A stretch of 19,720 bases of DNA, taken from contig JAHLWH010000244.1 of NCBI GenBank assembly GCA_019058015.1, positions 1 to 19,720 on the forward strand, given 5' to 3'. Position 1 is the stretch's first letter. Each line of letters starts with the position of its first letter. This stretch comes from Promethearchaeota archaeon. GTDB taxonomy: Archaea > Asgardarchaeota > Lokiarchaeia > Sigyniarchaeales > SOKP01. The notes below the pieces were generated by a model. That model was not told where the DNA came from. It did not search any database and saw only the letters and a list, made by a program, of their open reading frames with translations. Below are positions 270-16,622 of the stretch, one piece after another. Position numbers and translations under genes: made by a program.

Positions 270-411
270 GTATATTAAATTATAGTTATTCATTCGTTTT
301 ATGGATTAATTCCTAAGTTTATTGTAAAATACAAAAAATAAAATTTTTTTTCCAAAACATACTATCTGGATATTATATCGTAATATATTCAAATTTTTTG
401 CTTTCACTTAC

Positions 412-987: not shown

Positions 988-2051
988 AAAATTACGATAA
1001 CGCATATCGTGCCCTAAGTTACGTGAAAGAAAAAGCTCCTTATGACCCATATATTATTGTGTGTGATTTTAAACCAGCCTTGATTGCTGCAATCAAGGCA
1101 GTGTTTCCTAACTCTGCTGTTCAAATTGATGGATTTCATGTTATGCAAGAGGTTAATAATGGGATTAAACGCGATTTGAAAAATTATCGGGTAAACTTAT
1201 ATAAAGTAAAGGTTAATGAATTATTGGAGCTTCGTTCTTTTATTAACGCTCTCCAGGAGCAATTTAAAAATAACGACAATCTCAGTTTTAATCAACTTCC
1301 CGTATTGAAAAGTATTCAATCTTCTTATTATGGCACAAGAATATGTAAGGATGTGTTTAATAAACTCTTTTTTATATTAACTATCCAAGAACCTTACTCT
1401 TTTTTTAAGGCGCTTGATATTGCTCTCAATGGACTTCTAAGAAAACATGGTGAAGTTTTAAATGAGTTTTGCGATTCCATATACTCTAAGTTTCCGAAAC
1501 GGAAATTCACGATTAAAGGACGTACTAGAGTTCAAGGGGAACTTTTAAAAAAACTCAAGACTTTATGTCTCAATTTCAGGAAACCCTTAGAAGAGGAAGC
1601 TACAACATTCAGTAAAGAGTTAAATTTTCTCTTTTTACAGCCCGAAAAAATCACTCCAGAGATTGCGGTTCATTTAGAAAAGTTTTTAGAACAACATCCT
1701 ACTCTTAACGAATATCGTGAAATGACTCTAATGGTGGGAGAAATTTATCGAACCCCTTATGAATTGGTAGATGGACATCAAATTGACGTCTTAATGCAAA
1801 AACCAACTTATTCTGATAAATTAAATACTGCTATATCGACACTCAAAAGACATAAGAATGAGAATATCGCATTTTCAGATGTTTTCCCCAAACACCCAGA
1901 ATTATCAAAAGCTTGTCGGACAAATACAGAATGGATTAATATTAAGGTGAAAGCGCCGTTTAAAACAAGTTTCAATAGACAACGCCTTGATTTCATTGAA
2001 AATCGACTGAAACTTCAACTTGGAGGTGAAGTACGCAATTTTATTAATTAA
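915..2051 (+). CDS. ISL3-like transposase C-terminal ORF (DDE core), probably joined to the upstream ORF by a -1 frameshift at the A9 run 913-921
   Basis: IVCDFKPALIAAIKAVFPNSAVQIDGFHVMQ is the ISL3/IS256 'D...AI..VFP....ID.FH' motif, and RTNTEWINIKVK carries the last catalytic Glu. The frame opens right after TAA 912-914, inside the A run (track start 978). Confidence 0.85.
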   Translation, partial: KKRCAIIVNSQVVKRNILIDLVGVENYDNAYRALSYVKEKAPYDPYIIVCDFKPALIAAIKAVFPNSAVQIDGFHVMQEVNNGIKRDLKNYRVNLYKVKVNELLELRSFINALQEQFKNNDNLSFNQLPVLKSIQSSYYGTRICKDVFNKLFFILTIQEPYSFFKALDIALNGLLRKHGEVLNEFCDSIYSKFPKRKFTIKGRTRVQGELLKKLKTLCLNFRKPLEEEATTFSKELNFLFLQPEKITPEIAVHLEKFLEQHPTLNEYREMTLMVGEIYRTPYELVDGHQIDVLMQKPTYSDKLNTAISTLKRHKNENIAFSDVFPKHPELSKACRTNTEWINIKVKAPFKTSFNRQRLDFIENRLKLQLGGEVRNFIN

Positions 2052-2164
2052 AAAAAGTTTCATTTAAATATACATAAAATATAGGAATTAGTCATCTTTT
2101 TAAGAAATAAGAACAAAATTACAATCAAATAAAGTTTTTTAAATTAATTTTAGGAGTAATTAAA

Positions 2165-3487
2165 ATGGAAAAAAAAGAAAAAGTTTTTAATAAATTTTTA
2201 CGCAGGCAAGTTCTTTTAATCGGAATACTTTTCGCTGGCGACACAATATTTGGGTTCTTCGAACAAAATTATTTAAATACTTATTTAGACCAAGTTTTGA
2301 ATTTAGGTCCACTATTTATATCAGTAATGGTTAGTTTATCAGCGGTCCTAGGGCTTATAATGAACCTTAGTTGGGGAATAATTAGTGATAATACACGTTC
2401 CAAGTTTGGTAGACGAAGACCATATTTATTATTTGGGATTATAGCAGGAATTTCGATGATTTTATTTGCTTTTTCTATAGATCTTGGAGGAGGAAATATC
2501 ATAATTGCCTATATCATCTGTCTCATATTGGATGTAGTGATTATTGGTATTGCTTCAAATGCTTATTATGTATCTGAAAGATCATTAATCCCCGATACAG
2601 TTGAGTTAGAACTTAGAGGAAGAGCGAATGGAAGAATAAATATAATAGGATATTTAGGTTTGTTGATTGCTATTGCAGCTTTTTTAGTCGCAGATCTTAT
2701 ATTTGGGCAAGAAGTGGCTGGAGAAACGGTTATAGGACAAGAAGGGCATTTATTCGTTCTTTCAATAGGAGGAGTTAGTATTATAATTGCTGGTCTGATA
2801 GGATTTCTTTTTATAAAGGAAAAACCGGTTTCAGAATTACCTCCAAAAAAGAAATTTTTTGTTGAACTTAAAGAAATAGTTAATATAGAACAGCTTAAAT
2901 CGAATAAAGAGCTTTTTAAAATAATTCTTGCCCTAACTATATATTATTCAGGAATTTATACGGTAATGCCTTTTTTGTTTATTTGGATTTTTGCATTGAA
3001 CTTATCAACAATAGAGTTACTTCTTGGAGTTGCATTCGGATTTCCTATTTTATTTATTGTAACTTCTTACTTAGGAAAACTGGCTGATAAATATGGACGT
3101 AGAAAATATATACCAATTTCAATCATAATTATATGTATAGGTTATTTGCTAACTCCATTTGTAAAGATTGGAACAGATGTGAATTTTATTTTATTTCTAG
3201 TTGTGCTTCCATTTATTCTAATAGGAATTTTAGGACTTGCCACCCCAATGAATGCATGGACACAAGATTTGATACCTGAAAATCAAAGAGGAAAATTCTT
3301 TGGAATAGTAAATATAGTTTTTACAATTTCCCAAGTTATTGGATCTATAGTTGGGGGATTAGTAATAACTTATTTCGTAATCACAGGATTTGTCCCAGAA
3401 TCTTTCATTTTTGTTTTCGCACCAATTTTCTTTATATGTTCTATTCCACTCTTTCTTAAAGTTAAGGAGACTTTAGTTAAAGAATAA
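2165..3487 (+). CDS. MFS transporter, glycoside-pentoside-hexuronide / MalT-like sugar transporter
   Basis: About 12 hydrophobic segments. Loop motifs WGIISDNTRSKFGRRRPYLL and GKLADKYGRRK, plus SLIPD..ELRGRANG and DLIPENQRGKFFG. AGGAG RBS ~8 nt upstream. Confidence 0.92.
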   Translation: MEKKEKVFNKFLRRQVLLIGILFAGDTIFGFFEQNYLNTYLDQVLNLGPLFISVMVSLSAVLGLIMNLSWGIISDNTRSKFGRRRPYLLFGIIAGISMILFAFSIDLGGGNIIIAYIICLILDVVIIGIASNAYYVSERSLIPDTVELELRGRANGRINIIGYLGLLIAIAAFLVADLIFGQEVAGETVIGQEGHLFVLSIGGVSIIIAGLIGFLFIKEKPVSELPPKKKFFVELKEIVNIEQLKSNKELFKIILALTIYYSGIYTVMPFLFIWIFALNLSTIELLLGVAFGFPILFIVTSYLGKLADKYGRRKYIPISIIIICIGYLLTPFVKIGTDVNFILFLVVLPFILIGILGLATPMNAWTQDLIPENQRGKFFGIVNIVFTISQVIGSIVGGLVITYFVITGFVPESFIFVFAPIFFICSIPLFLKVKETLVKE

Positions 3488-3522
3488 TTTAAATTAAAAT
3501 TTCATTAATTTTTTTTATTTTT

Positions 3523-4524
3523 TTATTTTTTTTGCGGCTCAACAATAATTTTTATCCATTTTTCACGATCATAAAATTTAAATGCATCAACGGCTTCTTC
3601 CAATGTTATTTTTTTAGTAATAAGACTTCTTAAATCAAGCTTTTTACTCGCTATCATATCCAAAGCTTCTGTCCAATAATCTTTATCTGCTTTTGAATTA
3701 ACCATAGCTTCGGGATAAATCAATTCCACACCCTTTTTTCGACAATTAACATACGGAATATACTGCATTTTCTGAGCCCCAAATACTAAAACACGATATC
3801 CTGGCTTTACTAAATTAATTGCATTAAGAAGAGTATCATTATGTCCAACCATTTCAAAAACAGCATGGGCTTCACCAAATTCTTTTTCAATCTCATCTAT
3901 AACGGTTTCATTTCCATGCGTTGGTCGAGAATAATCATTTGGATTATAAACTTCTGCACCCCATTTTTTAGCCAGATCTCTTTTATGATGATATGGTTCC
4001 GTTGCGGCAACTTCAATTCTGTTATTTAATAAAATTTGTGTTAGAATTAACCCAATGGGACCAAGACCTAATACAATGGCTTTCTTTTCCCCTTCTTTTC
4101 TATCAAATTCTGCACGTTCATAACAATTTATTGCACATCCTACTGCATCTGCAAATGAAATTTCATCCATAGAAAGATCATTTCTTACTATGGGAAGAGC
4201 TCCAGTTAATTCATCCTTTCCGTGACCAACCACATTTACGTGAGTTGAATATTCGGCATATCCATGTCCCATTCGTGCTAAATGATCCCCTTCAGAAATA
4301 TCTTCAATATCATTCCCTACTTCAACCGCAATTGCACCTGTCTCGTGTCCGTGTCCACCAGGTTCGTGAGCAATTATCCAATGGCCACCTTCAAAAATCC
4401 CTACATCGCTTCCACAGATTCCTACAGACACCATTTCTGCCAATACTTCATTGGCATCTGGTTTGGGAATATCAATTTCTATTAACTTTACAACCCATGG
4501 TTCTGGGAATAATAAAGCTCTCAT
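3523..4524 (-). CDS. Zn-dependent medium-chain dehydrogenase (sorbitol/threonine dehydrogenase-like)
   Basis: GICGSD and GHE catalytic-Zn motifs and a GLGPIG Rossmann motif. No structural-Zn four-Cys loop. ATG 4524 (MRALLF) is preferred over the track TTG at 4545. Confidence 0.9.
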   Translation of the reverse strand: MRALLFPEPWVVKLIEIDIPKPDANEVLAEMVSVGICGSDVGIFEGGHWIIAHEPGGHGHETGAIAVEVGNDIEDISEGDHLARMGHGYAEYSTHVNVVGHGKDELTGALPIVRNDLSMDEISFADAVGCAINCYERAEFDRKEGEKKAIVLGLGPIGLILTQILLNNRIEVAATEPYHHKRDLAKKWGAEVYNPNDYSRPTHGNETVIDEIEKEFGEAHAVFEMVGHNDTLLNAINLVKPGYRVLVFGAQKMQYIPYVNCRKKGVELIYPEAMVNSKADKDYWTEALDMIASKKLDLRSLITKKITLEEAVDAFKFYDREKWIKIIVEPQKK

Positions 4525-4581
4525 TTTATCTTTCAATATAATCAACTAATTTTTGTAGTGAAATTTAATTATTGAATTTTT

Positions 4582-7401
4582 TTATTTACCTCTGATTCCG
4601 TCAATCAGGAGTTTTAAAATCAAACCAATACTCATATTTAATCCTTTCTCAGGAATTTTTTCTTGAACAGAAGGATCATAGTCTCTATTTACTTCTCTGA
4701 CCCATTCTAAATAAGACATATTCATAAGATTCTCTACATCAAATTCATCTTTTAACGATTTTGCTAATTTGGAATACTTGGAATAATTATTATAAAGATT
4801 AGAATCACTTTTTTTTCCGATTAATATCAAAGGAGGCAGAGTGATATGATCTGCAAATGATTGGATAAAATCTGGAGGAGAATCACCTAAGTATGGTGCC
4901 AAGATCAGTTCAAAAGTGATTATTTTTCCACTAAAAGTAGGAGCAGTAGAATGTACATTACCGAAAAGTTTTGGTATAAATTTTTGAGCATGTCCGGTAC
5001 CTTCTGTCCAATAATGAAATGGTTTTCCAAAATATGTACCAAAGGGATTTAATCTTATTTGTTGACCTTTCACATTAGTATCTCCAAAGCCTTTATTTCT
5101 GACTTTTATTGGAGAAAACGCAAAATTGGCTGCTTTTAAAGAATTAAAACCAATAAGAAGCCCCTTTTTTCGATCAGATAGAGCCATCCAGCCATCTGAT
5201 ATATTTGAAACTAAACAATCCATATCTACATTTTTAGGATCAACTTCCTTCATATCGAGATCAAAATAATCAACAACTCCAAGAAAATTTTTTTTCCAAA
5301 TTCTTAAAGGCTTTTCTTTTCCTACTATTTTAGGTTTGATTTCACATGGCATAATTTCTTGCCATCTCTCATCATATTTCTCGGTTACATAAGTTGTTCC
5401 ATCTTCACTTGTAACTTCTCCTTTAATTTCGGGAATTTTCATTAGGACATTTACAAAAAGTTCTGGTATTTCTGTATATATTGTAATAATTTTTTCAGAA
5501 TATACTTTTAAATTATCAATAATTCTAAATTCACTTTCAATTTTAACAGAAGCAGAAAAACCGTTACTACCATCTTTTAAAATAATTATATTGTCTTTTT
5601 CTGAAGTGTATCTTTTTCCATTATTCAATTTGCCAAATATAATGGCAGATTCCAGAAAATTTGAACAACCAAATTCTTTTCTATTATATTTAAAAGATAC
5701 AATTTTACCTTTTTCGTTAAATTCTAGCGTAATGTATTTATTTTTAATAAATTTTAATGTAGCTATTAATTCTTGATCTTTAACTTGATTCGCTTCTTCG
5801 GAAATATTTAATGATAATAGAGCAGTTTTTCTTCCGTTTTGATTAAACATTGAAGCAGGAATAATAGCTTCTATAAGAAAATCTGATTCAGAATCATTTT
5901 TATATATGGAGTAGTGAATTAATTCTTCTTTAGAAATAGGATTTATTAATCTTAAAGATTTATTTTCTTTCTTTAATATATCCACTAAGTCTGGTGGGAC
6001 TTCTGATCGTACTAAAATTGGTGATTTAATTAGAATATTTTCTTTTTCTGAAATACCTCTGTTAGTTATTGGAGTTATTGTCATTATATAATCATTACCA
6101 TCAAAATTTTCTAATAACTTATTCACTGCTTCTTTAACAGCAACATTAACTGCTTTTTCCGAGGCAAAGAATGCTTTTAAACCATAATTCATGGCCGTTT
6201 TTCTTCTATGTGGGTGCTGAAAAGGCACCGCCATTCCGAAATTTGTAGTAGAGGCAAAAAGAATTTTATTCTTAAGATAAGTTTCTGCTAAATCATTTCC
6301 TTCTCTTAGGTATTTATTTATTTCAGAAATTGACCGATTAACTAAATTTTCAGAGATCAAAGTATCTGAAATACATTTTAACCATCTTGCTCTCTGTCCT
6401 ACGGTCCAAAACTTTGTATTATTAAGTTTCTGTGCCCAATTATAATAACCATTCCACATACCATCAGCTACATCTTCTCTTAGAGTGGTTTCACCATTTA
6501 TATCTAATTTAGGAATAATTTCCAGTAAATTTGTAAATTCAACGAAACCATATTGATCCACAGCTTCAGCAAACTCCATTAGACCTCTTGTATTTGGCAT
6601 CCATTGTAATTTTTTTGGCATCTTGACACCAATCCAATTATCCTCATCCATATCAAAGTTTAAGAATATAAGTGCATGTCCGCTTATTTCTCCACTTTTT
6701 TGCTTTCTTCTTATTAATTCAAACCATCTTTTAATTGAACGATAATCAAGTATATCGCCAAAACCATACATAGGTATCATTAAACATGAAGTATCAGAAA
6801 TTGTAGAATTAAATTTGACTAAACCATATCTTTGATTCCAATCCAAACGAGGTTTTAAAAAAGGTCTGGCAACATCAAATTCATATACAGAATAATAAAC
6901 GCAAATTCCCTGAATACCTAATTTATTATATAATTCAATCATGCCTTGAGTAAACATTGTTTCTTGACAACGGGCATAAGGTGCAACTCTTCCCGGAAAT
7001 AATTGATTCAAGCCGATACCCATTGAATTTTCTAAATACCATTCATATTGTTGTATAAATTCTTCCGTATCAAGGATTGGTTGAGCAACATTACCCCAAG
7101 AGCCAATTAATACTTCATCTTTACCTTTTTTACATCTTTCAATCACTCCATCAAGCACATCCTGTTGGAATTCTTTTTGAAGTTGTATTGACCAGAATGT
7201 GTCGGCATAATCCCAAGTAATACGCATGTTTCCAAAAGAAAAGCCTATATCTTCAATCTTATCAAGCTCACCCAATATTTCTTTCATTAATTTAATATCT
7301 TTGCCGAAACCAGAAGCGCTTCGAGAATCACCTCGATAACTATGGTAATAATTAATGTGAGGTGATAAAACAAAATAAATTTTTTTTTCTTCTATATCCA
7401 A
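4582..7401 (-). CDS. Large cytoplasmic glycoside-hydrolase-like protein (GH38/GH57-type N-terminal barrel, beta-rich C-terminal domain)
   Basis: 939 aa, no signal peptide. N-terminal KIYFVLSPHINYYHSY, ITWDYAD, EVLIGSWGNVAQPILDTEEFIQQ and CQETMF resemble the GH38N/GH57 barrel. IKNKYITLEFNEKGKIVSF resembles the start of the GH38 C-terminal supersandwich. TTG start with AAGGAG upstream. Confidence 0.6.
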   Translation of the reverse strand: MDIEEKKIYFVLSPHINYYHSYRGDSRSASGFGKDIKLMKEILGELDKIEDIGFSFGNMRITWDYADTFWSIQLQKEFQQDVLDGVIERCKKGKDEVLIGSWGNVAQPILDTEEFIQQYEWYLENSMGIGLNQLFPGRVAPYARCQETMFTQGMIELYNKLGIQGICVYYSVYEFDVARPFLKPRLDWNQRYGLVKFNSTISDTSCLMIPMYGFGDILDYRSIKRWFELIRRKQKSGEISGHALIFLNFDMDEDNWIGVKMPKKLQWMPNTRGLMEFAEAVDQYGFVEFTNLLEIIPKLDINGETTLREDVADGMWNGYYNWAQKLNNTKFWTVGQRARWLKCISDTLISENLVNRSISEINKYLREGNDLAETYLKNKILFASTTNFGMAVPFQHPHRRKTAMNYGLKAFFASEKAVNVAVKEAVNKLLENFDGNDYIMTITPITNRGISEKENILIKSPILVRSEVPPDLVDILKKENKSLRLINPISKEELIHYSIYKNDSESDFLIEAIIPASMFNQNGRKTALLSLNISEEANQVKDQELIATLKFIKNKYITLEFNEKGKIVSFKYNRKEFGCSNFLESAIIFGKLNNGKRYTSEKDNIIILKDGSNGFSASVKIESEFRIIDNLKVYSEKIITIYTEIPELFVNVLMKIPEIKGEVTSEDGTTYVTEKYDERWQEIMPCEIKPKIVGKEKPLRIWKKNFLGVVDYFDLDMKEVDPKNVDMDCLVSNISDGWMALSDRKKGLLIGFNSLKAANFAFSPIKVRNKGFGDTNVKGQQIRLNPFGTYFGKPFHYWTEGTGHAQKFIPKLFGNVHSTAPTFSGKIITFELILAPYLGDSPPDFIQSFADHITLPPLILIGKKSDSNLYNNYSKYSKLAKSLKDEFDVENLMNMSYLEWVREVNRDYDPSVQEKIPEKGLNMSIGLILKLLIDGIRGK

Positions 7402-7429
7402 ATTATCTTAACTCCTTTAAATTTTACAA

Positions 7430-7448
7430 ATTAATTGATTCAATTAAT
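7430..7448. promoter_or_regulatory. Perfect inverted repeat ATTAATTGA-T-TCAATTAAT, candidate operator in the divergent promoter region
   Basis: 9-bp arms with a 1-nt spacer, ~30 bp upstream of the GH-like start, between divergent genes. AT-rich context lowers its significance. Confidence 0.4.
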
Positions 7449-7619
7449 ATTTGAATTGTTAAAAATTTTAATTTTCTAATACTTTTAATTAACATTTATT
7501 GTAAATATTGAATATGCTTATATATTTTATATTTAAAGGATAAAATCTGAGAATATAGCAATGATATTCTTTTTTAAGAAAAAATTTAAAAATTTGTATT
7601 TTTTATACTAAAAAATATC

Positions 7620-8531
7620 ATGACCGATTTTGAGGGAATATTTCCGGCAACTATTACTCCCATGAATAATGATTATTCTATTGATTTTGAGAGTTTTAAA
7701 AAATATCTAAGTTGGTTAAAAAATCAGAACATCAGTGGATTTGCTATTAATGTAGATACGGGAGAAGGTCCATCTTTAACATCGGAAGAACGGATGAAAT
7801 TATTAAAAAATACTAAGGAATTAGATGGAGATCTAAGAATTATTGTTGGAATAACAGGTGGCTCTACTGAAAGCGCCATAAAAGAAGCCAAGAATGCAGT
7901 TTCTTATGGGGCAGATACATTTCTAATTTTTCCAAATGTCAATTTTAAGGGGATACCTCAAAATGCTGATTTAATTTACAAATATCACGAGGATATAGCG
8001 ACAGAAACAGATAAAGATATCATAATTTTTAATTTACAAGACGATCTGGGAGGATGTTTATATACTAATGAGACTTTAAAAAAATTGATTTCAATTCCCC
8101 AAGTAAAAGCAATAAAAGAAGCAAGTTTTGACATATCCATCTTTAAATCAGTATATAAATTTTTAAAAAAACAGGATAAAAAAATCTCATTTTTAACCGG
8201 AAATGATAATTTTATATTAGAATCGTTCTTACTGGGTGCTGATGGGGGATTATTAGGGGCATGCGCACAATTCACACATTGGCAAGTAGATTGTTTCAAC
8301 TATGTTAAAACTAAACAATATAAGAAAGCAATTGAATTAAGTAAATTTTTTCAGCCCTTAGTGGATATAATTTTTATGTCTCCAGTTAGAAATTATCGTG
8401 CGAGAACAAAATATTCATTGATGTTGCAAGGTATAATTCCACGGTCTAATGTTCGACCTCCGTTAATGGAGTTGCCTGAAGAGGAAAAGAAAATAATAAA
8501 AAAGGCTTTAAAAACTTCAAAGATAATATAA
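7620..8531 (+). CDS. DapA/NAL-family class I aldolase/dehydratase (probably a 2-keto-3-deoxy sugar-acid enzyme rather than true DapA)
   Basis: EGIFPATITPM, NVDTGEGPSLTSEER, Schiff-base Lys in AIKEAS, LTGND, LGADGGLLG, VRPPL. Confidence 0.88.
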   Translation: MTDFEGIFPATITPMNNDYSIDFESFKKYLSWLKNQNISGFAINVDTGEGPSLTSEERMKLLKNTKELDGDLRIIVGITGGSTESAIKEAKNAVSYGADTFLIFPNVNFKGIPQNADLIYKYHEDIATETDKDIIIFNLQDDLGGCLYTNETLKKLISIPQVKAIKEASFDISIFKSVYKFLKKQDKKISFLTGNDNFILESFLLGADGGLLGACAQFTHWQVDCFNYVKTKQYKKAIELSKFFQPLVDIIFMSPVRNYRARTKYSLMLQGIIPRSNVRPPLMELPEEEKKIIKKALKTSKII

Positions 8532-8533
8532 AT

Positions 8534-9907
8534 TTAAATTTGATATTGAGGATCTCTAACAACACATCCTGCATTTTTTTCGAGTTTCATTAACTCTGAA
8601 CATTTCGAACAGGTTATACATACTTCATTTTTGTCGATAATTCCATCTTGAAAAATTTGCCGGGGGAAATTTGGATTAGCAAACGCCATTCTTCCAAATC
8701 CACAAATATCAACCTTTTTTTCATGAATTAGACCTGCTGCAATATATCCCGCATATTGACGTAAATAAGAATAGCCAGATCCGATAACAACCATATCTTC
8801 TGGCAACTGTTGCTTTATTAGAGATACTAATTTAATTATTCTATTCACACTATATAAGGGATGTTCCGATGCCAAATTTCCTCCTTTTACTGGGGTATCA
8901 TAAGGTCTCGTGATATGAGGTTTATAATGTGGGTTTCCTGCTGAGATATTGATTAATCTTAGACGTAAATTATATAATTTTTTGATTAATTCTAATGGTT
9001 CTAAGAGATCAATTGATGCAGGAAAATTTTCATTTTTTTCCGATTTAACACCAAATCCATTAGGATAAGGAATACCATTATATACTCCAAGACGAGTTGT
9101 CATTAAAAAATTAGTTTTATCAGTTAATTCTTTCTTCAATCTCTTAAAAATATTAAGTAAAAGTCTTGTTCGATTTTCTAAAGATTGCCCACCATATTTC
9201 GAATTTTTCCTCACTCTCGAACATAATAATTCGCTAATTAAATAACCATGACAAGATTTTATATCGACTCCATCAAAACCTATTTCGCTTGCCAAAATTG
9301 CTTTTTCAACCCATAAATCTTCTATCATTTCTAATTCTATGTCCGAAATAATTGAGCCCTCTTTCTTAGAAACGTTAATTGCATTATCTAATTCTGAGTT
9401 GTGATAAGTTCTTATCGGATATTTTTTACCTTCTCTTCTAGAATATCTTCCCGAATGATTTAATTGTAAAATTAAAAAACACTGACCTTCAAGGCCCAAA
9501 TTTTTAAGTGTTTGATTACATCGTTCTCTGGTTATCGAGACTAGGCTCCTAAATTGTTTTGAATTATTCTCAGATAAAACTAATTGATGCTGATTTGAAC
9601 GACAATTATCTGAAATTGCAGTTGCTTCAAACCAAATCAAGCCTGCACCTCCTTTGGCATAACGCTTATATCTTCTAAAAGTTAATTCACTTGGAGCTCC
9701 ATCTATATTTGAGTCGAATCCTTCCATTGGTTGGATAGCTAACCGATTAGGAATGAATTTATTCTCAATTTTTACCCTCTCTTTTAAAATTTCAACCTTA
9801 GAATATATTGGAATATCTAATCTTAATTCCTTTATCTTTTTTTTCAAATCGCTAAGTGATCTATATGTAAATGGTTCAAATTTTTTATATGATGAAGTTA
9901 TTTTCAT
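8534..9907 (-). CDS. NADH:flavin oxidoreductase (Old Yellow Enzyme family) with a C-terminal CxxCxxCx11C motif
   Basis: NRLAIQPMEG, AKGGAGLIWFEA, LQLNHSGR, GFDGVDIKSCHGYL, YGGQSLENRTR, GFGRMAFANP and CITCSKCSELMKLEKNAGC. ATG 9907 (MKITSS) is preferred over 9952, whose extension is low-complexity intergenic sequence. Confidence 0.9.
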   Translation of the reverse strand: MKITSSYKKFEPFTYRSLSDLKKKIKELRLDIPIYSKVEILKERVKIENKFIPNRLAIQPMEGFDSNIDGAPSELTFRRYKRYAKGGAGLIWFEATAISDNCRSNQHQLVLSENNSKQFRSLVSITRERCNQTLKNLGLEGQCFLILQLNHSGRYSRREGKKYPIRTYHNSELDNAINVSKKEGSIISDIELEMIEDLWVEKAILASEIGFDGVDIKSCHGYLISELLCSRVRKNSKYGGQSLENRTRLLLNIFKRLKKELTDKTNFLMTTRLGVYNGIPYPNGFGVKSEKNENFPASIDLLEPLELIKKLYNLRLRLINISAGNPHYKPHITRPYDTPVKGGNLASEHPLYSVNRIIKLVSLIKQQLPEDMVVIGSGYSYLRQYAGYIAAGLIHEKKVDICGFGRMAFANPNFPRQIFQDGIIDKNEVCITCSKCSELMKLEKNAGCVVRDPQYQI

Positions 9908-9963
9908 TATGAACAATATTATTATAAAATAAATAAAAAAAGAACGTTTCATTTTTTCTAACG

Positions 9964-10596
9964 ATGATTAAAAAAAAAATAATTTTGTATCAAGGCGGAA
10001 GATATTTCTATAGAAATAAAACATATAATTACTTTAAGAATATCTTAAGCGATTATGTTGTAGATATGTATGAAAATGTTTTAATATTTGGTAAAAAAGA
10101 ATTTTTTGACTACGACACAGCCATTTTTTTTAGTCAATTTGGCGAATTGACTGATAAACAAGAAAAAAATATTCTAGGTTTTATCAGCAGCGGTAAAGGT
10201 CTAATTGGGCTTCATGGTGCTTCTGCTTCTTTTAAGACTCATCCAAAATATCATGAAATGCTTGGTGGACGATTTATCAGTCATAAAAGGTTTAGAGAGT
10301 TCGATGTTAAAATTCTGGATAAAAACCATCCCATAACTCAGGGGTTAGAAGATTTTAGAATTAAAGATGAGCCTTATCGACATGATTTTTCCATGGGTAG
10401 AGATATATATATTTTAGCAGAAGGGAATTATTATGATAAAAACGATCCAAAGCCTGAACCTATTATATGGATAAAAACCTACGGAAAAGGAAGAATCTTT
10501 TTTTGTGCGTTAGGGCATAAGGCAAAATCCTTGAAAAATGAGAATTATCAAATAATAATAAAAAGAGCCGTGAAATGGGTATTAGAGGGTCAATAA
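9964..10596 (+). CDS. ThuA-like (trehalose utilisation; class I GATase-like fold) domain protein
   Basis: GKGLIGLHGAS, MLGGRFISH, NHPITQGLEDF..DEPY and YGKGRIFFCALGH are characteristic ThuA-domain motifs. Confidence 0.88.
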   Translation: MIKKKIILYQGGRYFYRNKTYNYFKNILSDYVVDMYENVLIFGKKEFFDYDTAIFFSQFGELTDKQEKNILGFISSGKGLIGLHGASASFKTHPKYHEMLGGRFISHKRFREFDVKILDKNHPITQGLEDFRIKDEPYRHDFSMGRDIYILAEGNYYDKNDPKPEPIIWIKTYGKGRIFFCALGHKAKSLKNENYQIIIKRAVKWVLEGQ

Positions 10597-10611
10597 AATG
10601 GGTGGTTTATT

Positions 10612-11637
10612 ATAGGAAATGATGATTTTATAAAAGTAGGAGTTATTGGATGCGGTTCTATTTCTGGATTTTATAAATTTATATCTAGAATAGTTAAAAA
10701 TACAAAAATTGAAGCTGCCATGGATTTAGATTTGAAAAGGGCCATTAAAATTGGAGGAAAAAAACATGCTTATACGGATATTCAAAAAATGTATGATAAT
10801 GAAGATTTCAATGTTGTCTATATTGCTACACCACATTATCTTCACAAACCTATGATTAAGCAAGCCTTCGAAGAGGGTAAACACGTATTATGTGAAAAAC
10901 CGGTTTCTATATCAATTGAAGATGCTCGTGAAATAAATCAGTTGGATAGAAAATTTGGTTTTCTAAAACTTGGATTTAATTATAATTATCGATACGACCA
11001 TAATTGCTTTTACTTAGCTTCAGGTATCCAAAATAGTCATTTAGGTAAAATTTATTACGCAAATTGCAGTATATATTTTAGTCGTGAGATGGATTATTTT
11101 AATAGGGCTATTTGGAGAACTAAAAAGGAAACCGCTGGAGGTGGTACCTTATTAATCCATGGCTCGCACATTGTAGATACAATGTTATGGGCATTAGGTG
11201 AACCAATCTCTGTTATGGGGAAAATAGATACCCTAAAATTTAAAAATATTGAAGTAGAAGATTTGGCATTAGGAATTGTTGAGTTTCAAAGCGGTGCTTA
11301 TGCCCAAATTAATGATGCCTCTTTCATTAAACCTGCTTTGTCTATATTTAAAGAAAAAGTAGAGTTGCAAATTTTCGGAGAAAAAGGATATTGTCATTAT
11401 AAAGGACCTTGGCCTATTTCTTCCCTAAAATGGAAAGGTGTGAAGAATTTTAAAATTAAAAAAAATACTAAAGGATTCTCCCATTTTGGAAGATCTATTA
11501 AGGCATTCGGAAATTGGGTTTTATACGATAAACCATTTTTTAATACGGTAGAAGAAAGCTCTAAAGTATTAAGTTTGATTTCCGCGTTATATAAATCCTC
11601 TGATACCGGCAAAAAAGAAAAAGTTGAAAAGTTATAA
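10612..11637 (+). CDS. Gfo/Idh/MocA-family NAD(P)-dependent oxidoreductase (ThuB-like); true start lies upstream of the track ATG at 10720
   Basis: VYIATPHYLH, GKHVLCEKP and GGGTLLIHGSH.VD. The Rossmann motif IKVGVIGCGSIS is encoded in frame at 10630-10665, upstream of ATG 10720. The start coordinate (ATA 10612 after GGGTGG) is inferred. Confidence 0.88.
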   Translation: MGNDDFIKVGVIGCGSISGFYKFISRIVKNTKIEAAMDLDLKRAIKIGGKKHAYTDIQKMYDNEDFNVVYIATPHYLHKPMIKQAFEEGKHVLCEKPVSISIEDAREINQLDRKFGFLKLGFNYNYRYDHNCFYLASGIQNSHLGKIYYANCSIYFSREMDYFNRAIWRTKKETAGGGTLLIHGSHIVDTMLWALGEPISVMGKIDTLKFKNIEVEDLALGIVEFQSGAYAQINDASFIKPALSIFKEKVELQIFGEKGYCHYKGPWPISSLKWKGVKNFKIKKNTKGFSHFGRSIKAFGNWVLYDKPFFNTVEESSKVLSLISALYKSSDTGKKEKVEKL

Positions 11638-11729
11638 AATACAAAATTTAAATTGGTTTAATATAAAGACATAAATAATTTCGTATGCTTTAAGATTTTT
11701 CCCCCATATCACCTGGATATTATACCCTA

Positions 11730-11875
11730 ACATGAAGTCATCTTTGTTGATGTACGCCATATCATCTTTTCTCAGCCATTTCTCACCGGTGTTAGTGACG
11801 GTCCAAAATGCCCTCTCAGTAGCTTCAGGGCTCTTCCAATAGCCTTTCATAACTTGAGGGCCCTTAATAACAATT
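11730..11875 (-). pseudogene. Short remnant of a long-chain fatty-acid--CoA ligase (AMP-binding enzyme)
   Basis: IVIKGPQVMKGYWKSPEATERAF...EKWLRKDDMAYINKDDF matches 'GE...GPQVMKGYW..PEAT...WL.TGD.A..DEDG' with TGD decayed to KDD. Only ~50 of the expected >500 codons remain. Confidence 0.8.
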
Positions 11876-11976
11876 CTTAGTCCAGCAATTTCAGCTAAGA
11901 GAAAAAATAAATTAAATAAATAATTTTTGCAAAAATTTGGTTCTAGTATTTGAAATTCTTTATATTAAAAGTGATA

Positions 11977-14010
11977 CTAATCAAAAACTTCCTTTTTCAG
12001 AAATTTTTTCCATGTATTTTCAAAACATCCATATTTGGAAGGAATATCTCTTACAGCATCCCATTCGATGATTATTCTACCATTTTTCAGCTGAATAGTT
12101 TGGATTTTATTTGATAAATTTAAATTATTATAAATAAATTTATATTCTTTAAGATTATCTGGAGGTATAATATATTTTTCGGATAACGAATCATTTAACT
12201 TATTTCTTAATACTAAGTAAGAGCCCCTACTACTTCCAAATGAGAGATGGTAATTTAATATTGCTTTTAAGAAGAATAACTGAGTAAGAAGTGCATCTTT
12301 TACTCGTAAGTATTCAATAATTTCAGTATTAAATTTTAGTGTTATTAATTTATTAATTTTATTTAATTGATCTTGAATTGCTAAAATTTCGGCTTCGAGA
12401 CCTTTTAATGGACGAATAATTCCACCATATTTTGACATCCTATATTGTATCTGGTCTAATAGTTTATTTGTTGTTAAGGATTTTTCACTATCAGAAGGAG
12501 AATTTTCCAATACAATAGCGAATTCATGTATTAAATTAACAATTTCATTTTTGACTTTATTTTGAAAATTCTTATGATTTATTAATTGATAACTATTATA
12601 TAAATGCGCTATTTTTTGTGATGCTCTTAATCCACCTACTTGTCCTGCATTTAATGCAGCCCCACCAGGTCTTTGAATTCCGTGGTTCCCATTAATTTCT
12701 CCAATCGCAAAAAGATTTTTTACTGTAGTAGCTTCCCACCATCCATTACATGATACCCCACCATTAAGGTGTTGATTACATACAGCTATTTCAAGTAGTT
12801 CTGAACTAAGATCAATATTATGTTTTTTATAAATCAAAATTGCTTGTTTATTCAATTTCCTAAGACGTTTGATTGGCGTATCTCCTAATGCTTTAGAATT
12901 AATTAAATAATCTTTTGCTACTTGATGTAATTTGTTAAAGTTAAAATTTTTAGGATTTTTTGTGTAATCTAAAAAAACTCGTCTGTTAAATACTTCTAAT
13001 TCATGATAGACAGCTAGATCAATTAATGAAGAACCATAATTTTCAATTTTTGTTGCATTAAATGGCCATTGATAGCCTTTTAAGAATATGGCTTTTGAAA
13101 GTTCTTTAAAAGATGGAAAAATATCATAAAGAAATTCTATTTCATTTTCAGATTCATCAACAGAAAAATATCGGGGAATTACTTGTTGATATGACCCAGA
13201 AACATTCCATCGAAACTTAATTGATGCTAATCCAAATTGTGATTCTGTTAAATTTTGAAGTTTACATCCCGCTTTAATAGCTAAACTTGTTGTTCCTTTT
13301 TGTGATTTTGGGTAAACTGAATTTTTATACAAAACTGCGGGTCCACCAATAGCTAATATTAAATTTTTTACTTTAAAAACTGCTAAGGAATCAAGCAAAT
13401 TTTCTATATTTTTTTCTTTAGATAAATCATCAATCTTAATACATATTAAACCGACTATTTTAGGTTTTTCAGTCGTATCATCAACGATAATTTTTAACGC
13501 ATAATACTTGTCAAATATTTTTATATTTTTTTCTTCAATAGCTTTTAAAAGGCACTTCCCCATTTCTTGAGAAGTTAAAGGCCCTATTGATGTAGCTCTT
13601 TGTCGTGGATCATTATCTGTTTTATATCCTACAAAACCACCATATTTATCATGAGGGAAAGGAACCCCTAATTGAACTAAATGAAAGAATTCTCTTATTG
13701 AATTTGTTGCTTCGATTAAAGCTATATCACCATGCATTGCTCCCCCTCTATAGAGATCTTTAGCCAATTCATAAGGAGAATCAGATTGATCTCCATAAAT
13801 AGACATCTTATAATAAGTTTGTTTATCAGAGCCTGCATTAAAGGAAGTCCCACCACCTAAGTTTTCTGTAACGATTGCTACTTTATCTGATGGGATACCC
13901 TCCATTATTAAATGGAGTGCACAATTTAAACCAGCTGCTCCAGAACCTATAATAATAGAATTAAACTCTTGAATATTTAATTTGTTAAGATTAGGTTTGA
14001 TTTTTTTCAT
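11977..14010 (-). CDS. FAD-dependent oxidoreductase, SdhA/FrdA/NadB-like flavoprotein family (FAD_binding_2)
   Basis: IIIGSGAAGLNCA, LILAIGG, NQHLNGG, LFAIGEINGNHGIQRPGGAALNAGQVGG and C-terminal SRGS. GAGGT RBS at 14016-14020 favours ATG 14010 over 14022. Confidence 0.88.
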   Translation of the reverse strand: MKKIKPNLNKLNIQEFNSIIIGSGAAGLNCALHLIMEGIPSDKVAIVTENLGGGTSFNAGSDKQTYYKMSIYGDQSDSPYELAKDLYRGGAMHGDIALIEATNSIREFFHLVQLGVPFPHDKYGGFVGYKTDNDPRQRATSIGPLTSQEMGKCLLKAIEEKNIKIFDKYYALKIIVDDTTEKPKIVGLICIKIDDLSKEKNIENLLDSLAVFKVKNLILAIGGPAVLYKNSVYPKSQKGTTSLAIKAGCKLQNLTESQFGLASIKFRWNVSGSYQQVIPRYFSVDESENEIEFLYDIFPSFKELSKAIFLKGYQWPFNATKIENYGSSLIDLAVYHELEVFNRRVFLDYTKNPKNFNFNKLHQVAKDYLINSKALGDTPIKRLRKLNKQAILIYKKHNIDLSSELLEIAVCNQHLNGGVSCNGWWEATTVKNLFAIGEINGNHGIQRPGGAALNAGQVGGLRASQKIAHLYNSYQLINHKNFQNKVKNEIVNLIHEFAIVLENSPSDSEKSLTTNKLLDQIQYRMSKYGGIIRPLKGLEAEILAIQDQLNKINKLITLKFNTEIIEYLRVKDALLTQLFFLKAILNYHLSFGSSRGSYLVLRNKLNDSLSEKYIIPPDNLKEYKFIYNNLNLSNKIQTIQLKNGRIIIEWDAVRDIPSKYGCFENTWKKFLKKEVFD

Positions 14011-14025
14011 ATTTAACCTCATATT

Positions 14026-14826
14026 TTACAATTCATGTAAATGGAAGCCACCATCAATGCGAATCGCTTCTCCAGTTGAATAAGGTACACCTCCATTAAC
14101 AATAGAAATTACAATCTTGGCAATATCAGTCGGTAAGCCCCAACGCTTTATTGGTATTAACCCTTTTTCAATCAGATCCTCATATTTTTCTTTAAATGGC
14201 TCAGTCATGGGTGTTAGAATTATCCCTGGCTGTATCTCAAATACAGGAATATTATATTCAGAAAGACGAGTGGCATAGAGTTTCGTCATCATAGATATAC
14301 CTGCCTTAGAAATACAATATTCACCTCTATTTGGGGATGGTATGAAGCTTGAAATGGATGAGATATTTATTATGTATGGTTGATAATCTTCTTTTAATAT
14401 TTTCTTAAGGGTTATCATCCAATTTGCAATTGATTGAGTTAGAAAATAAGGACCTTGAAGATTAATTTTTATTAATCTTTCAAAAGATTCTTCTTTAGCT
14501 TCTAAAAGATCTTTCCTTTCTAGTGGGGCTACTCCAGCATTATTGACCAAAACGTCAATCTTATTGAATTTTTCTTTAAGTTTGTTAACAAGCTTTTCTC
14601 GACTTCTTTTATTGCTTATATCAGCTTGAACATAGATGAAATTATCTTCAGATTCCTTTTTATAGATTTTTGATAAACTCTCAATATAATCTTTAGATAA
14701 TTCTTCCGTTGATGCTCCATTAATAACAAGATTGAACCCTATTTTAGCCAATTCTAATGCAATAGCTTTTCCTATGCCATGGGTACTCCCAGTAACTAAA
14801 GCAACTTTTATTTTATTTGTTTTCAT
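14026..14826 (-). CDS. Short-chain dehydrogenase/reductase (PRK12745-like subgroup, likely a sugar/ketoglycoside dehydrogenase)
   Basis: TGSTHGIG, VLVNNAGV, NISSIS, catalytic YCISK in SPNRGEYCISKAG, PGII.T.MT and IDGG. Its stop lies ~16 bp upstream of the FAD protein start, implying co-transcription. Confidence 0.92.
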   Translation of the reverse strand: MKTNKIKVALVTGSTHGIGKAIALELAKIGFNLVINGASTEELSKDYIESLSKIYKKESEDNFIYVQADISNKRSREKLVNKLKEKFNKIDVLVNNAGVAPLERKDLLEAKEESFERLIKINLQGPYFLTQSIANWMITLKKILKEDYQPYIINISSISSFIPSPNRGEYCISKAGISMMTKLYATRLSEYNIPVFEIQPGIILTPMTEPFKEKYEDLIEKGLIPIKRWGLPTDIAKIVISIVNGGVPYSTGEAIRIDGGFHLHEL

Positions 14827-14900
14827 AAAATACTAATTATTTGATTTTATCAATATTATTAAGTTAAGCTAGAACTCATTTAATATATTTTTTTCATTTT

Positions 14901-15721
14901 ATAAAAGACGAGTTCGTTCCTGAACCCAAAAAAATTCCCGAACGAGTTAAAAAAGAATTAACGTTTGATTTAGAAGATATTTTCTGTCCCTTTTGTGGAC
15001 ACCCGCTTGAGTATCATTACTTGAGCAATGCAAGACCGCTCATCACGATAAAATACGACATTTCTTTAAGGGTGGTACATAAAAGATGCGTTAATGAGGA
15101 GTGCATTGCGTGTATATCCAATAGAAATTTTTATACCCCTTCCTTGGACCTGTATGTGCTACCTAAAAAGACATACGCCACGGACGTCGTGCTTTTAATC
15201 GGACACTTGATTCAACAAGAACATTACACGGAAGAAGAAGTGGTCAAATACTTGTTAGAAGAGCACGGAATTACCATCAGCCAACCGAGCGTAAACAATT
15301 ATAAACGAATAGCCTTGGCATTAGGAGAGGCTCTCATCATGGGGAACGAGGAAAAGATTAAGAGCGGGTTGGACGGATTACCTGTTCGGGTGTATTCAAT
15401 TGACTGTCTTAGCTCAAATAAGAGCAAGACTCTATTTGTGATTCGAGAGTTGATTAGCGGGACTGTTTTAAGGTCGGAGCTTCTTGACAAGCACGATGCC
15501 GACATCATTCACGATTTCATGGAAGCCATGTTTCAAAAATTTGGAGAACACGATTACATGGTGGGTGATGGCGAGCGCGAGCTTATTGGTGCCACGCGCA
15601 AGTATTATAGCCATATCCCGTTTCAATACTGCCATCTCCACTTTTTAGATAACATAGGAAAAGCGCTAATGGAAGACCTTTATAAATCGTTTAAAAAAAA
15701 ATAAACCGAAAATCACACTAA
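14901..15721 (+). pseudogene. Truncated DDE transposase (IS256/ISH6/MULE-like or ISNCY) remnant
   Basis: Frame is open upstream of TTG 15021: (ATA 14901) IKDEFVPEPKKIPERVKKELTFDLEDIFCPFCGH...KRCVNEECIAC (Zn finger). Then ISQPSVNNY (HTH-like), YSIDCL, MVGDGE and FQYCHLHFL (MULE-type CxxH). Ends at an A9 run (15693-15701); the C-terminal catalytic-Glu region is missing. Visibly more GC-rich than its flanks. Confidence 0.8.
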
Positions 15722-15738
15722 AAAATATTTATTTGAAT

Positions 15739-16605
15739 TTATATACTCGCAAAGAAATATGCTATGATTATACAGAGCATTCCACTTCTCAGTAGAATAA
15801 ATACTCTCCCTTTATATTCCTCTTCAAAGTTATATAAGTAGTTCAAAATAGCTGCAATGCCGATTAGTATTGCTCCGATTATCATTGGGATTAGATAGAG
15901 AAAAGAGTTATAGATTCCTGTAATAAATGGAATTACTAAGAACAGAATTGTTAGAACTTGTAGTAATAATACAATATGCTGAGCTTTTTTAATAGTAACA
16001 ATTTCTGCAAAAAGTTTATATTCTTCAGTATTAGTTCTTTTTTCTGCAGTCTTCTTACAACTTTTTAATATATCCTTCGAAAACTGAAGCGTGAAAACTC
16101 CCATAAAAAAGAAGTACACATATATCGGGACTGAAACATTATTTAATATCGCACCGTAGATTAATCCAAAAGAAACTAAAAAGCCTATAATGACATTAAT
16201 CAAAATGCTTTTCTCTTCCCATTGATTTCCATATAGAAAAGAGAATCCCCAGAACACGCCGATTATTCCCAGAATTATTAATACAAATATATTCCGATCA
16301 AAATAGAATACATAAACCGCTGAAATTCCATACGCAACTAAAAATATGACTATTGATATGATCTTTATAACTTTATTCTTATTAAGTTTTCTCTCAGTAC
16401 TCTCTTGCGGTGATTTTAGAAACAGCACAAGCAATATGCCTGAAACAATCACCAGAAAATATAGAGTAGGACCGAGAATGAGATTATCAATGAACCAATT
16501 ATATCCTACATCAAATCTACTGTTTAGTACACCAATAATCAGAAAAATTGTTCCTTTAAACCAATTTATTAATTGATATTTTCCAACAAACGTTTTTATC
16601 TTCAT
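15739..16605 (-). CDS. UbiA-family prenyltransferase-like membrane protein (DGGGP-synthase-like), Asp-rich motifs degenerate
   Basis: About 9 TM segments, and length and layout match archaeal DGGGP synthase (MKIK..., FLYGNQW...LINVIIGFLVSFGLIYGA, QFSKDILKSC....E.YKLFA). The canonical NDxxDxxxD and KDxxDxxGD motifs are not retained. AGGTGA RBS at 16612-16617. Confidence 0.65.
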   Translation of the reverse strand: MKIKTFVGKYQLINWFKGTIFLIIGVLNSRFDVGYNWFIDNLILGPTLYFLVIVSGILLVLFLKSPQESTERKLNKNKVIKIISIVIFLVAYGISAVYVFYFDRNIFVLIILGIIGVFWGFSFLYGNQWEEKSILINVIIGFLVSFGLIYGAILNNVSVPIYVYFFFMGVFTLQFSKDILKSCKKTAEKRTNTEEYKLFAEIVTIKKAQHIVLLLQVLTILFLVIPFITGIYNSFLYLIPMIIGAILIGIAAILNYLYNFEEEYKGRVFILLRSGMLCIIIAYFFASI

Positions 16606-16622
16606 ATTTTCTCACCTTGTGT

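Follow-up and report, generated by a model that had tools for sequence, protein, structure and literature searches.

Nine adjacent genes on one contig of an Asgard archaeon raise the question of whether they make up a single pathway or more than one. The contig, JAHLWH010000244.1 of the Promethearchaeota archaeon assembly GCA_019058015.1, was analysed in its entirety (19.7 kb, positions 1 to 19,720; hereafter the window) and belongs to a genome of 3.84 Mb with 29% G+C that is 94% complete. An earlier note on this DNA had read the nine genes between 2165 and 14826 as one coherent set for the catabolism of glycosides. The relatives of these genes split them into at least two modules: module A, consisting of an MFS transporter, a medium-chain dehydrogenase (MDR) and a protein of 939 residues (P939), and module B, built around a trio formed by an OYE-family flavoenzyme, a short-chain dehydrogenase (SDR) and a flavoprotein (the FAD protein). 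The window is best explained, at about even confidence, as a mosaic accessory island that holds two independently inherited carbohydrate modules, with module B acting as a putative redox route for uronate-glycan products.

The genes of the window were identified from a listing of open reading frames (ORFs) combined with Pfam and NCBIfam scans, and the nine genes named in the earlier note were all recovered at their positions and in their families. The features of the window are as follows.

978-2051, plus strand: ISL3-like transposase remnant, left flank of the island
2165-3487, plus strand: MFS transporter, module A (Pfam MFS_1/MFS_2)
3523-4545, minus strand: zinc-dependent MDR of the polyol/threonine dehydrogenase type, module A (ADH_zinc_N/ADH_N)
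4582-7401, minus strand: P939, cytoplasmic protein of 939 residues with a GH38/GH57 fold in its predicted structure, module A
7620-8531, plus strand: DapA/DHDPS-family class I aldolase-fold enzyme (Pfam DHDPS)
8534-9907, minus strand: OYE-family flavoenzyme, module B core (Oxidored_FMN and a Cys motif); probable start at the second Met, the ORF from the first Met spans 8534-9952
9964-10596, plus strand: ThuA-family protein (Pfam ThuA)
10609-11637, plus strand: Gfo/Idh/MocA NAD-dependent oxidoreductase (GFO_IDH_MocA); probable ATT start, the ATG-started ORF spans 10720-11637
11977-14022, minus strand: FAD protein of 681 residues, fumarate reductase/L-aspartate oxidase type, module B core (FAD_binding_2)
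14026-14826, minus strand: SDR, module B core (adh_short)
15021-15704, between the SDR gene and o702: ORF of 227 residues, no family match
15739-16605, minus strand: polytopic membrane protein, weakly UbiA-like, of uncertain membership in the set
16623-18731, minus strand: o702, protein of 702 residues with an N-terminal membrane anchor and a predicted polysaccharide-lyase fold, beyond the range flagged by the earlier note

The separation of the two modules is seen in the loci of their relatives. A profile search with P939 yielded 80 loci, 40 of Asgard type (49-99% identity) and 40 bacterial (25-32%), and 49 Asgard loci from 12 genera were fetched centred on the FAD gene; individual homologous loci carry L-numbers, genomes G-numbers (G000 being the window's own) and Asgard genera g-numbers. 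Genes for DapA, ThuA, Gfo and FAD are found in 0 of the 80 P939 loci, in which OYE and SDR have one weak match each among the Asgard loci and SDR one more among the bacterial loci. MDR and P939 occur in 0 of the 49 Asgard FAD loci, and an MFS homologue with 46-49% identity lies beside FAD in two of them, L133 and L134. The proposed co-occurrence thus stands for ThuA-Gfo, OYE, FAD and SDR, which are linked, and falls for the importer, MDR and P939, which travel apart. The boundary between the modules is placed at position 7433, just upstream of P939, because some metagenome contigs diverge there.

These counts make it very unlikely that all nine genes serve one non-phosphorylative pathway for neutral glycosides, running through import, C3 oxidation, elimination, ene-reduction, oxidation and aldol cleavage. 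The adjacency of all nine genes, an arrangement that is real in four independent metagenome runs, speaks for such a pathway, as do the solved relatives of Gfo, which include the C3-oxidising DgpA and glucuronide-3-dehydrogenase, and the presence of Gfo with xylose-isomerase-like TIM barrels beside the trio in the bacterial loci L157, L159 and L160. Against it, module A normally lies within an inositol-phosphate block, and an insertion-sequence remnant together with other gene remnants marks a rearranged island. No eliminase-type TIM barrel is present in the window, so that the elimination step lacks the xylose-isomerase-like TIM barrel of the known 3-keto-glycoside route. The reported lack of a sugar kinase is true of the window, where no kinase family was found by Pfam/NCBIfam among the 16 ORFs scanned, but 8 of the 49 FAD loci have an FGGY kinase at the edge of the cassette. 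A keto-glycoside elimination scheme is possible for the ThuA-Gfo part only, not as a nine-gene pathway.

Module B is held together by a conserved gene order. Among 151 genomes sampled evenly across the phylum, the FAD, OYE and ThuA genes are each present in 10 genomes, P939 in 9 and DapA in 2; nearly all of these genomes belong to the window's own family, and OYE and FAD share 9 of them. In an order-wide sample of 154 genomes from 24 genera, FAD is present in 58 genomes and 16 genera. The genes tested around the 49 FAD loci, which come from related genomes and are not independent samples, are distributed as follows.

SDR: 45 of 49 loci, on the same strand as FAD in 45 of 45, at a median gap of about 20 bases
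OYE: 42 of 49
Gfo: 17 of 49
ThuA: 16 of 49
HGSNAT-like membrane protein: 16 of 49
GH3: 15 of 49
TrmB sugar regulator: 8 of 49
FGGY kinase: 8 of 49, in 4 of the 12 genera
o702: at least 7 of 49, a floor, as many FAD-centred loci end before the o702 position
PL11 rhamnogalacturonan lyase: 6 of 49
MFS homologue: 2 of 49
MDR, P939 and DapA: 0 of 49 each

The composition of the locus varies by genus around this core. Genus g2 carries a fixed locus comprising PL11, a PEMT-like gene, FAD, SDR, the HGSNAT-like gene, GH3, Gfo, ThuA, OYE and o702; the locus of g6 reads Gfo, ThuA, OYE, FAD, SDR, TrmB and FGGY, and that of g4 OYE, FAD and SDR only. The trio is also present in three loci of a third Asgard family.

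The same trio recurs in bacteria. In a metagenome-assembled genome (MAG) of the Bacillota, a sugar ABC transporter, a histidine kinase and an AraC-type response regulator are followed by FAD, SDR and OYE, and a Spirochaetota MAG (L140) carries an o702 homologue (32%), Gfo (36%), FAD, SDR, LacI and OYE. Across the Clostridia-like class of the Bacillota MAG, FAD occurs in 33 of 200 sampled genomes, and OYE, SDR and FAD lie together in that order in 18 of 21 loci. Linkage within module B is well beyond chance, since the same three genes are found in the same order in Asgard archaea, Clostridia-like bacteria and one spirochaete. Heparinase II/III-like genes stand beside the trio in L146, L148, L149 (with GH78) and L158, and one is inserted between OYE and SDR in L159. 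Further bacterial neighbours are UxaC (L157), a D-2-hydroxyacid dehydrogenase (5 loci), LacI and AraC regulators and a sugar ABC transporter. The carbohydrate setting that had been assigned to the genes is thereby upheld, through GH3, PL11, TrmB and FGGY in Asgard archaea and through LacI/AraC, sugar ABC, heparinase II/III-like, GH78 and UxaC genes in bacteria.

The OYE protein matches Pfam Oxidored_FMN at 76 bits, the match covering positions 1-229 of a profile of 342. Its C-terminal CxxCxxCx11C motif is kept in 15 of 15 aligned homologues, bacterial ones included; CxxCxxCx(11-12)C is the spacing of the 4Fe-4S cluster-binding motif in the OYE group of TMADH, FadH, BaiCD and DZNR. The chain of 457 residues ends about 10 residues past this motif and has no C-terminal FAD/NAD(P)H-binding domain. 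It probably starts at the second Met (9907), as its relatives begin there, and the N-terminal membrane segment that was considered for this protein is an artefact of taking the first Met as the start. In L146, L147, L148 and L149, OYE reaches 874-895 residues and is fused to Fer4_20 (the dihydropyrimidine-dehydrogenase-type 4Fe-4S domain) and Pyr_redox_2, an architecture that would make it a self-sufficient NAD(P)H-dependent reductase.

The FAD protein matches FAD_binding_2 at 60 bits, and its C-terminal half is TfrA-like (106 bits). In the profile comparison, L-aspartate oxidase (NadB) comes first with an E-value of 5e-22, followed by SdhA/FrdA at about 1e-14, and all NCBIfam equivalog scores fall far under their cut-offs. 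The His of HYxxGG and the Arg of HGxNR are active-site residues of the fumarate reductase/succinate dehydrogenase/L-aspartate oxidase flavoproteins, and R451 aligns with the Arg of HGxNR (HGANR in L-aspartate oxidase). The SDR matches adh_short at 153.7 bits, reaches 311.7 bits with the NCBIfam equivalog PRK12745, '3-ketoacyl-ACP reductase', above the cut-off of 250, and shows a KduD-like similarity of 145 bits against a cut-off of 369. Automatic annotation would name this SDR after fatty-acid synthesis, a label that finds no backing in its gene context.

The nature of the substrate is approached through o702, which has no Pfam match. Its AlphaFold2 model (pLDDT 81.5) begins with a helix at residues 2-31, and the top Foldseek matches belong, with few exceptions, to uronate lyases or a uronate epimerase: PL15 Atu3025 is best (E 3.8e-5), and DS-epimerase, PL17, heparinases II and III and PL8 are among the others. 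VIA alignments give Z scores of 10.7 (GAG lyase), 9.6 (DS-epimerase) and 9.6, with 388-441 residues aligned across both domains, and in the ESM Atlas the cluster 'Heparinase II/III family protein' comes third at 0.94. Residues N167, H168 and Y226, candidates for the catalytic Asn/His and Tyr of such lyases, are invariant. The spacing from His to Tyr is 58 residues, against 56 for the mutated H202 and Y258 of Alg17c. By its two-domain fold, an (alpha/alpha) toroid with a beta-sandwich, the modelled protein matches, at moderate strength, the uronate polysaccharide lyases of PL8, 12, 15, 17, 21 and 33. Homologues of o702 stand beside the trio in G049, G129, L090, L101, L103, L105, L108, L110 and L134, in addition to the spirochaete L140. 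The membrane protein encoded at 15739-16605 scores 23 bits against UbiA, below the cut-off of 34.2, and a 32% homologue of it follows the o702 homologue in L090.

The lyase fold of o702 and the bacterial neighbours argue for uronate-containing glycans rather than neutral glycosides. A glycan containing both uronate and rhamnose is favoured as the source, given the recurrent lyase-fold partners, PL11, GH78, UxaC and the 2-hydroxyacid dehydrogenases. KduI and UxaC were not found in G000, a genome 94% complete, and KduI is present in 0 of the 5 g2 genomes that carry the full locus. GH88/GH105 give marginal partial matches only, in G000 and five g2 genomes. These matches (G000:C71:4152-4544 and the g2 frames) cover about profile positions 4-128 of 352 within long frames of 650-753 residues, and the frames may represent further uncurated (alpha/alpha)-toroid families.

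A scheme for module B can be drawn from its gene content, linkage and folds, with the substrate, the direction and the order of steps inferred. Outside the cell, o702 (with PL11 and GH3 in sister genera) would cut a uronate-containing, probably rhamnose-bearing glycan. The resulting unsaturated or keto sugar acids would be oxidised inside the cell by ThuA-Gfo in an NAD-dependent manner. A reductive sequence like that of equol formation would follow, in which OYE reduces a C=C bond and the SDR a C=O bond; after these, the FAD protein would perform a flavin-dependent conversion of an intermediate that bears a carboxylate. The DapA-fold enzyme of this genome would cleave or dehydrate a 2-keto-3-deoxy acid. 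As a tentative and rather doubtful extension, OYE-SDR-FAD together with the o702 family and Gfo would constitute an undescribed reductive route for lyase-released 4,5-unsaturated uronates, which would replace GH88/105-KduI-KduD in strict anaerobes of two domains, in Asgard archaea as well as in Clostridia-like bacteria and spirochaetes, and would have passed between them by gene transfer.

The main rival takes plant flavonoid or other phenolic glycosides as the compounds that module B breaks down, with GH3, GH78 and ThuA-Gfo removing the sugars, in part along the oxidative DgpA-type route, and the trio reducing the enone of the aglycone in the manner of DZNR, DHDR and THDR on daidzein. The three-family make-up of the trio equals that of the equol cluster, Gfo resembles DgpA (E 1.5e-22), GH78 rhamnosidase and GH3 are among the neighbours, and TIM barrels are present in three bacterial loci. 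We consider it unlikely, as the trio of both domains repeatedly has genes of uronate-lyase fold or heparinase II/III-like genes next to it, once inside the operon, and its neighbours further include UxaC, PL11 and 2-hydroxyacid dehydrogenases; the neighbours scanned comprise no chalcone isomerase, phloretin hydrolase or racemase, and the kinship to the equol enzymes was compared at the level of families only.

ThuA and Gfo are partners of the module B trio. ThuA scores 127.4 bits against Pfam PF06283 (cut-off 33.4) over profile positions 21-209 of 209. Gfo lies directly after ThuA in 6 of the 7 ThuA loci fetched first, and both genes are present in 16 of the 49 FAD loci. The best solved relatives of Gfo are 3q2i, DgpA, 1,5-anhydrofructose reductase, GFOR and glucuronide-3-dehydrogenase. 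In its truncated, ATG-started form, Gfo remains below the cut-offs of the BT_2158, BT_2159 and levoglucosan dehydrogenase equivalogs, with 35.4 of 750, 26.9 of 650 and 67 of 650 bits.

The start of Gfo is unusual. Its stop-to-stop frame continues in frame from ThuA behind a single TAA (10594-10596), and the Rossmann motif IKVGVIGCG is located upstream of the ATG at 10720. This frame carries IKVGVIGCGSISG (Rossmann GxGxxG) and CEKP, and three Pfam domains of Gfo exceed their cut-offs; EKP is a motif of the Gfo/Idh/MocA family. No ATG, GTG or TTG precedes the Rossmann motif in the Gfo frame. The same holds for 9 of 14 Gfo relatives, which often have an ATT behind a GGTG-like motif, and from its sequence Gfo most likely starts at the ATT at 10609 behind GGGTGG. 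Standard gene callers would shorten the protein by 37 residues and drop the NAD-binding motif. Two other readings of this junction, recoding of the stop codon and a fusion of ThuA with Gfo across the TAA at 10594-10596, are ruled out, as the relatives are separate genes with various stops.

The DapA-family protein matches DHDPS at 134.6 bits and TIGR00674 (dapA) at 139.3 bits against a cut-off of 206.15; its similarity to archaeal KD(P)G-aldolase is weak, at 73 against 390 bits. The Schiff-base Lys of KAIKEAS is kept. At the position that we take to be the YNxPxRT site of DHDPS, with the catalytic Tyr and the substrate Arg, the protein reads FNLQDDL as judged by eye, an active site unusual for the family. 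Both of the 2 carriers among the 151 sampled Asgard genomes have the gene beside OYE-ThuA-Gfo, and in the second, G141, DapA, OYE, ThuA and Gfo are arranged as in the window without FAD-SDR. A housekeeping role in lysine biosynthesis is ruled out for this gene, which scores below the dapA cut-off and is present in 2 of 151 genomes.

The remaining three genes of the nine make up module A. The MFS protein matches MFS_1 at 136 bits and MFS_2 at 80 bits, and its glycoside-pentoside-hexuronide likeness is weak (TIGR00792 gph, 57.7 bits, well under the cut-off). MDR matches Pfam ADH_zinc_N, ADH_N and Glu_dehyd_C, with weak NCBIfam matches to Tdh and IolM scyllo-inosose 3-dehydrogenase, and its best solved relatives are a ketose reductase and sorbitol dehydrogenase. 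P939 has no sequence match in Pfam, NCBIfam or the PDB. Its AlphaFold model (pLDDT 84.5, pTM 0.90) aligns over the full length with a GH38 alpha-mannosidase as the best Foldseek match (2wyh, E 1.6e-22, 987 columns, TM 0.51-0.55), followed by the GH57 4-alpha-glucanotransferase 1k1x (E 4.2e-15). The multi-domain architecture and domain order are shared full-length with these enzymes, but identity is only 9-11% and P939 carries no family sequence signature. The label 'GH38/57-like' thus holds at the level of the predicted fold, in the absence of a sequence-family match, and P939 represents an uncurated family of GH38/GH57 fold. Its acidic residues E147, D250, D252, D310 and D313 are invariant in the alignment columns, and 146 homologues were found, in which all rows that name a taxon, bar one, are Asgard MAGs.

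MDR lies directly downstream of P939 in 29 of the 40 Asgard loci (72-99% identity) and in 2 of the 40 bacterial loci, and an MFS homologue follows MDR in 25 of the 40 Asgard loci. In 13-20 of these 40 loci, P939-MDR-MFS are positioned between inositol-1-phosphate synthase and ITPK1-like ATP-grasp genes, within a larger syntenic block of inositol-1-phosphate synthase, two ITPK1-like ATP-grasp genes, further ATP-grasp genes, a HAD hydrolase and a radical-SAM gene. In the window's own genome, this block sits elsewhere, on contig C155. Module A probably imports and processes an inositol-type or glycoside substrate. The core of the block is the Lokiarchaeal inositol-phosphate synthase/ITPK1 locus (LcIKA-D) of Desfougeres et al. 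2019 (PMC6900528). The words dehydrogenase, hydrolase and transporter are absent from the main text of this publication, which thus does not discuss the three genes of module A there; the window in turn has none of the inositol-phosphate genes of the LcIKA-D locus. The position of the three genes inside the block, as in L004 (1-20800) and some 20 further Asgard loci, hints at an undescribed catabolic or glycoside-linked side of it. A locus recorded as Deltaproteobacteria (L026) has an Asgard-type P939 (49%), MDR (74%) and a weak OYE match, and may be a mis-binned Asgard contig or the result of transfer.

The joining of the two modules in the window is not an error of assembly. The nearest homologues of four window proteins are in MAG records named Promethearchaeota, Lokiarchaeota and sister Asgard labels, which identifies the host, as judged by its closest homologues, as a Loki-type Asgard archaeon, in agreement with the Asgard-like origin suggested before. 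The region 8534-14826 is present at 71-98% of sampled words in 20 sediment or subsurface metagenome runs from 8 studies. Contigs of four runs from four studies bridge the P939-DapA junction, and longer metagenome contigs span DapA-OYE-ThuA-Gfo, and OYE through o702. The bridging contigs in independent sediment metagenomes establish that the juxtaposition of the genes is real and no assembly artefact. The 24 runs considered include no RNA run and have no bearing on expression.

Signs of rearrangement surround the modules. The transposase remnant has a partial DDE_Tnp_ISL3 match (35 bits, profile positions 58-105 of 240) and reaches 36.9 bits against the NCBIfam transpos_ISL3 cut-off of 180. In run X8, contig depth over 304-2093 exceeds that elsewhere in the window about 5-fold, numerous variant letters and small deletions occur, and this segment looks like a multi-copy mobile element in the X8 community. 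Between Gfo and FAD, a frame of 110 codons (11632-11964, minus strand) presumably corresponds to the C-terminal part of an AMP-binding acyl-CoA synthetase and is probably what remains of a gene. In L025, L042 and L043, P939 is followed by intact AMP-binding genes. On contig C21 of G000, a decayed second copy of module A (7108-8849) retains an MFS paralogue (88% identity) and a P939 remnant, an N-terminal fragment of 124 residues (72% identity), and has no MDR.

Such remnants lend some weight to the view that no pathway is shared at all, and that a variable chromosomal spot has gathered unrelated accessory oxidoreductase genes by insertion and rearrangement. The transposase remnant at 978-2051, the acyl-CoA-synthetase-like fragment and the decayed copy on C21 all point in this direction. 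The genes are also patchy, each being present in 2 to 10 of the 151 sampled genomes, and one chromosomal position (beside YjeF in g4, beside TrmB-FGGY elsewhere) carries ThuA-Gfo, or OYE-FAD-SDR, or both, depending on the genome. This explanation may fit the meeting of module A with module B. It does not fit the order of OYE, SDR and FAD, which is kept in three phyla, nor the Gfo and lyase-fold genes that repeatedly stand beside the trio in both domains, and as an account of the whole island it has a low probability, on a level with the flavonoid-glycoside rival.

The uronate-glycan reading of module B has its own difficulties, which weigh against it as follows. The substrate is guessed from gene neighbours, as no enzyme of the set has been assayed, and GH78, GH3 and a DgpA-like Gfo suit flavonoid glycosides equally well as acidic glycans. 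Many trio loci have no glycan-active neighbour among the genes tested (12 of 12 in g4, for example), and some bacterial ones adjoin GH92, GH43 or housekeeping genes. Only 3 of 13 Asgard genera, counting the window's own, have ThuA-Gfo together with the trio, and a single further genome of those sampled has the DapA gene with the set; ThuA-Gfo and DapA may accordingly not be obligatory partners, and the inclusion of DapA in the set, as first proposed, is not sustained. The lyase-fold match of o702 is moderate, with Foldseek TM values of 0.2-0.3 and VIA Z scores of 8-11, where Z 7-8 is common. In the FAD protein, the His of the fumarate reductase HYxxGG motif aligns with Gln417, adjoined by the invariant His418, and the capping domain of fumarate reductase-type flavoproteins does not align. 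The long OYE forms possess their own NAD(P)H module, and the FAD protein could share an operon with them without sharing a substrate chain. Finally, the related genomes are not independent, and the linkage carries no formal statistic.

If the uronate-glycan reading of module B is true, the three-enzyme cassette would mark a branch of acidic-glycan or glycoside catabolism that has gone unrecognised in anaerobes. It is widespread (58 of 154 genomes of the Asgard order, 33 of 200 sampled genomes of the Clostridia-like class), and current pipelines label its members '3-ketoacyl-ACP reductase', 'FAD-binding protein' and 'NADH:flavin oxidoreductase'. Its bacterial homologues bring the question within reach of cultivable organisms, with the conserved gene order as a handle. 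The locus adds to the evidence that Loki-type archaea of sediments possess polysaccharide-utilisation loci that are accessory and probably exchanged. Two uncurated families, P939 with its highly conserved MDR partner and o702, would merit characterisation of the CAZy type. The window also illustrates that a tidy nine-gene 'pathway' in a single genome can be two modules juxtaposed by rearrangement.

Among the known systems nearest to the window, rhizobial and Agrobacterium thuAB form 3-keto-trehalose and 3-keto-maltitol and are linked to the thuEFGK ABC transporter. The window resembles this system, at the level of families, in its adjacent ThuA-family and Gfo/Idh/MocA genes in the same order, but it has no thuEFGK transporter (the scan of the window ORFs gave no ABC transporter gene), an archaeal host and an attachment to OYE-SDR-FAD. 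Oxidative 3-keto glycoside cleavage of the DgpA/DgpBC and BT2156-2160 type employs a Gfo-type 3-dehydrogenase and a xylose-isomerase-like TIM-barrel eliminase or hydratase. Its likeness to the window lies in Gfo, through the solved relatives DgpA and glucuronide-3-dehydrogenase and the weak BT_2158/BT_2159 matches, and some bacterial trio loci hold such a TIM barrel; no TIM-barrel eliminase is present in the window or in the Asgard loci tested, and the OYE and FAD proteins of module B have no counterpart in this route.

The canonical route for unsaturated uronates consists of a polysaccharide lyase, GH88/GH105, KduI, KduD or a DEH reductase (an SDR), KDG kinase and an aldolase. The window shares with it a lyase-fold protein, a KduD-like SDR and a DapA-fold enzyme, whereas OYE and a fumarate-reductase-like flavoprotein are not part of that route. 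Literature searches on Asgard ThuA, glycoside 3-dehydrogenases, uronate reduction and OYE-lyase-SDR combinations returned no description of this set, consistent with the view that it had not been described.

The closest counterpart of the trio is the equol pathway, in which DZNR is an OYE with a 4Fe-4S cluster, DHDR an SDR and THDR a fumarate reductase-like protein, acting in sequence on an enone: on the C=C bond, then on the C=O bond, then in a final flavin-dependent step (PMC4965515, PMC11572103). The window OYE, with 457 residues and no NAD(P)H/FAD domain, differs from DZNR, given there as 69.7 kDa, and the FAD protein of 681 residues differs from THDR at 52.6 kDa. The genes around module B are glycan-active genes and sugar regulators, whereas the neighbour described for the equol cluster is a racemase. 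In conclusion, the module B trio and the equol enzymes DZNR, DHDR and THDR of Lactococcus 20-92, Eggerthella YY7918 and Slackia, compared at family level, belong to the same three families, and as these families carry out the enone-to-methylene sequence of equol formation, they provide a concrete chemical analogy for the reductive steps proposed for module B.

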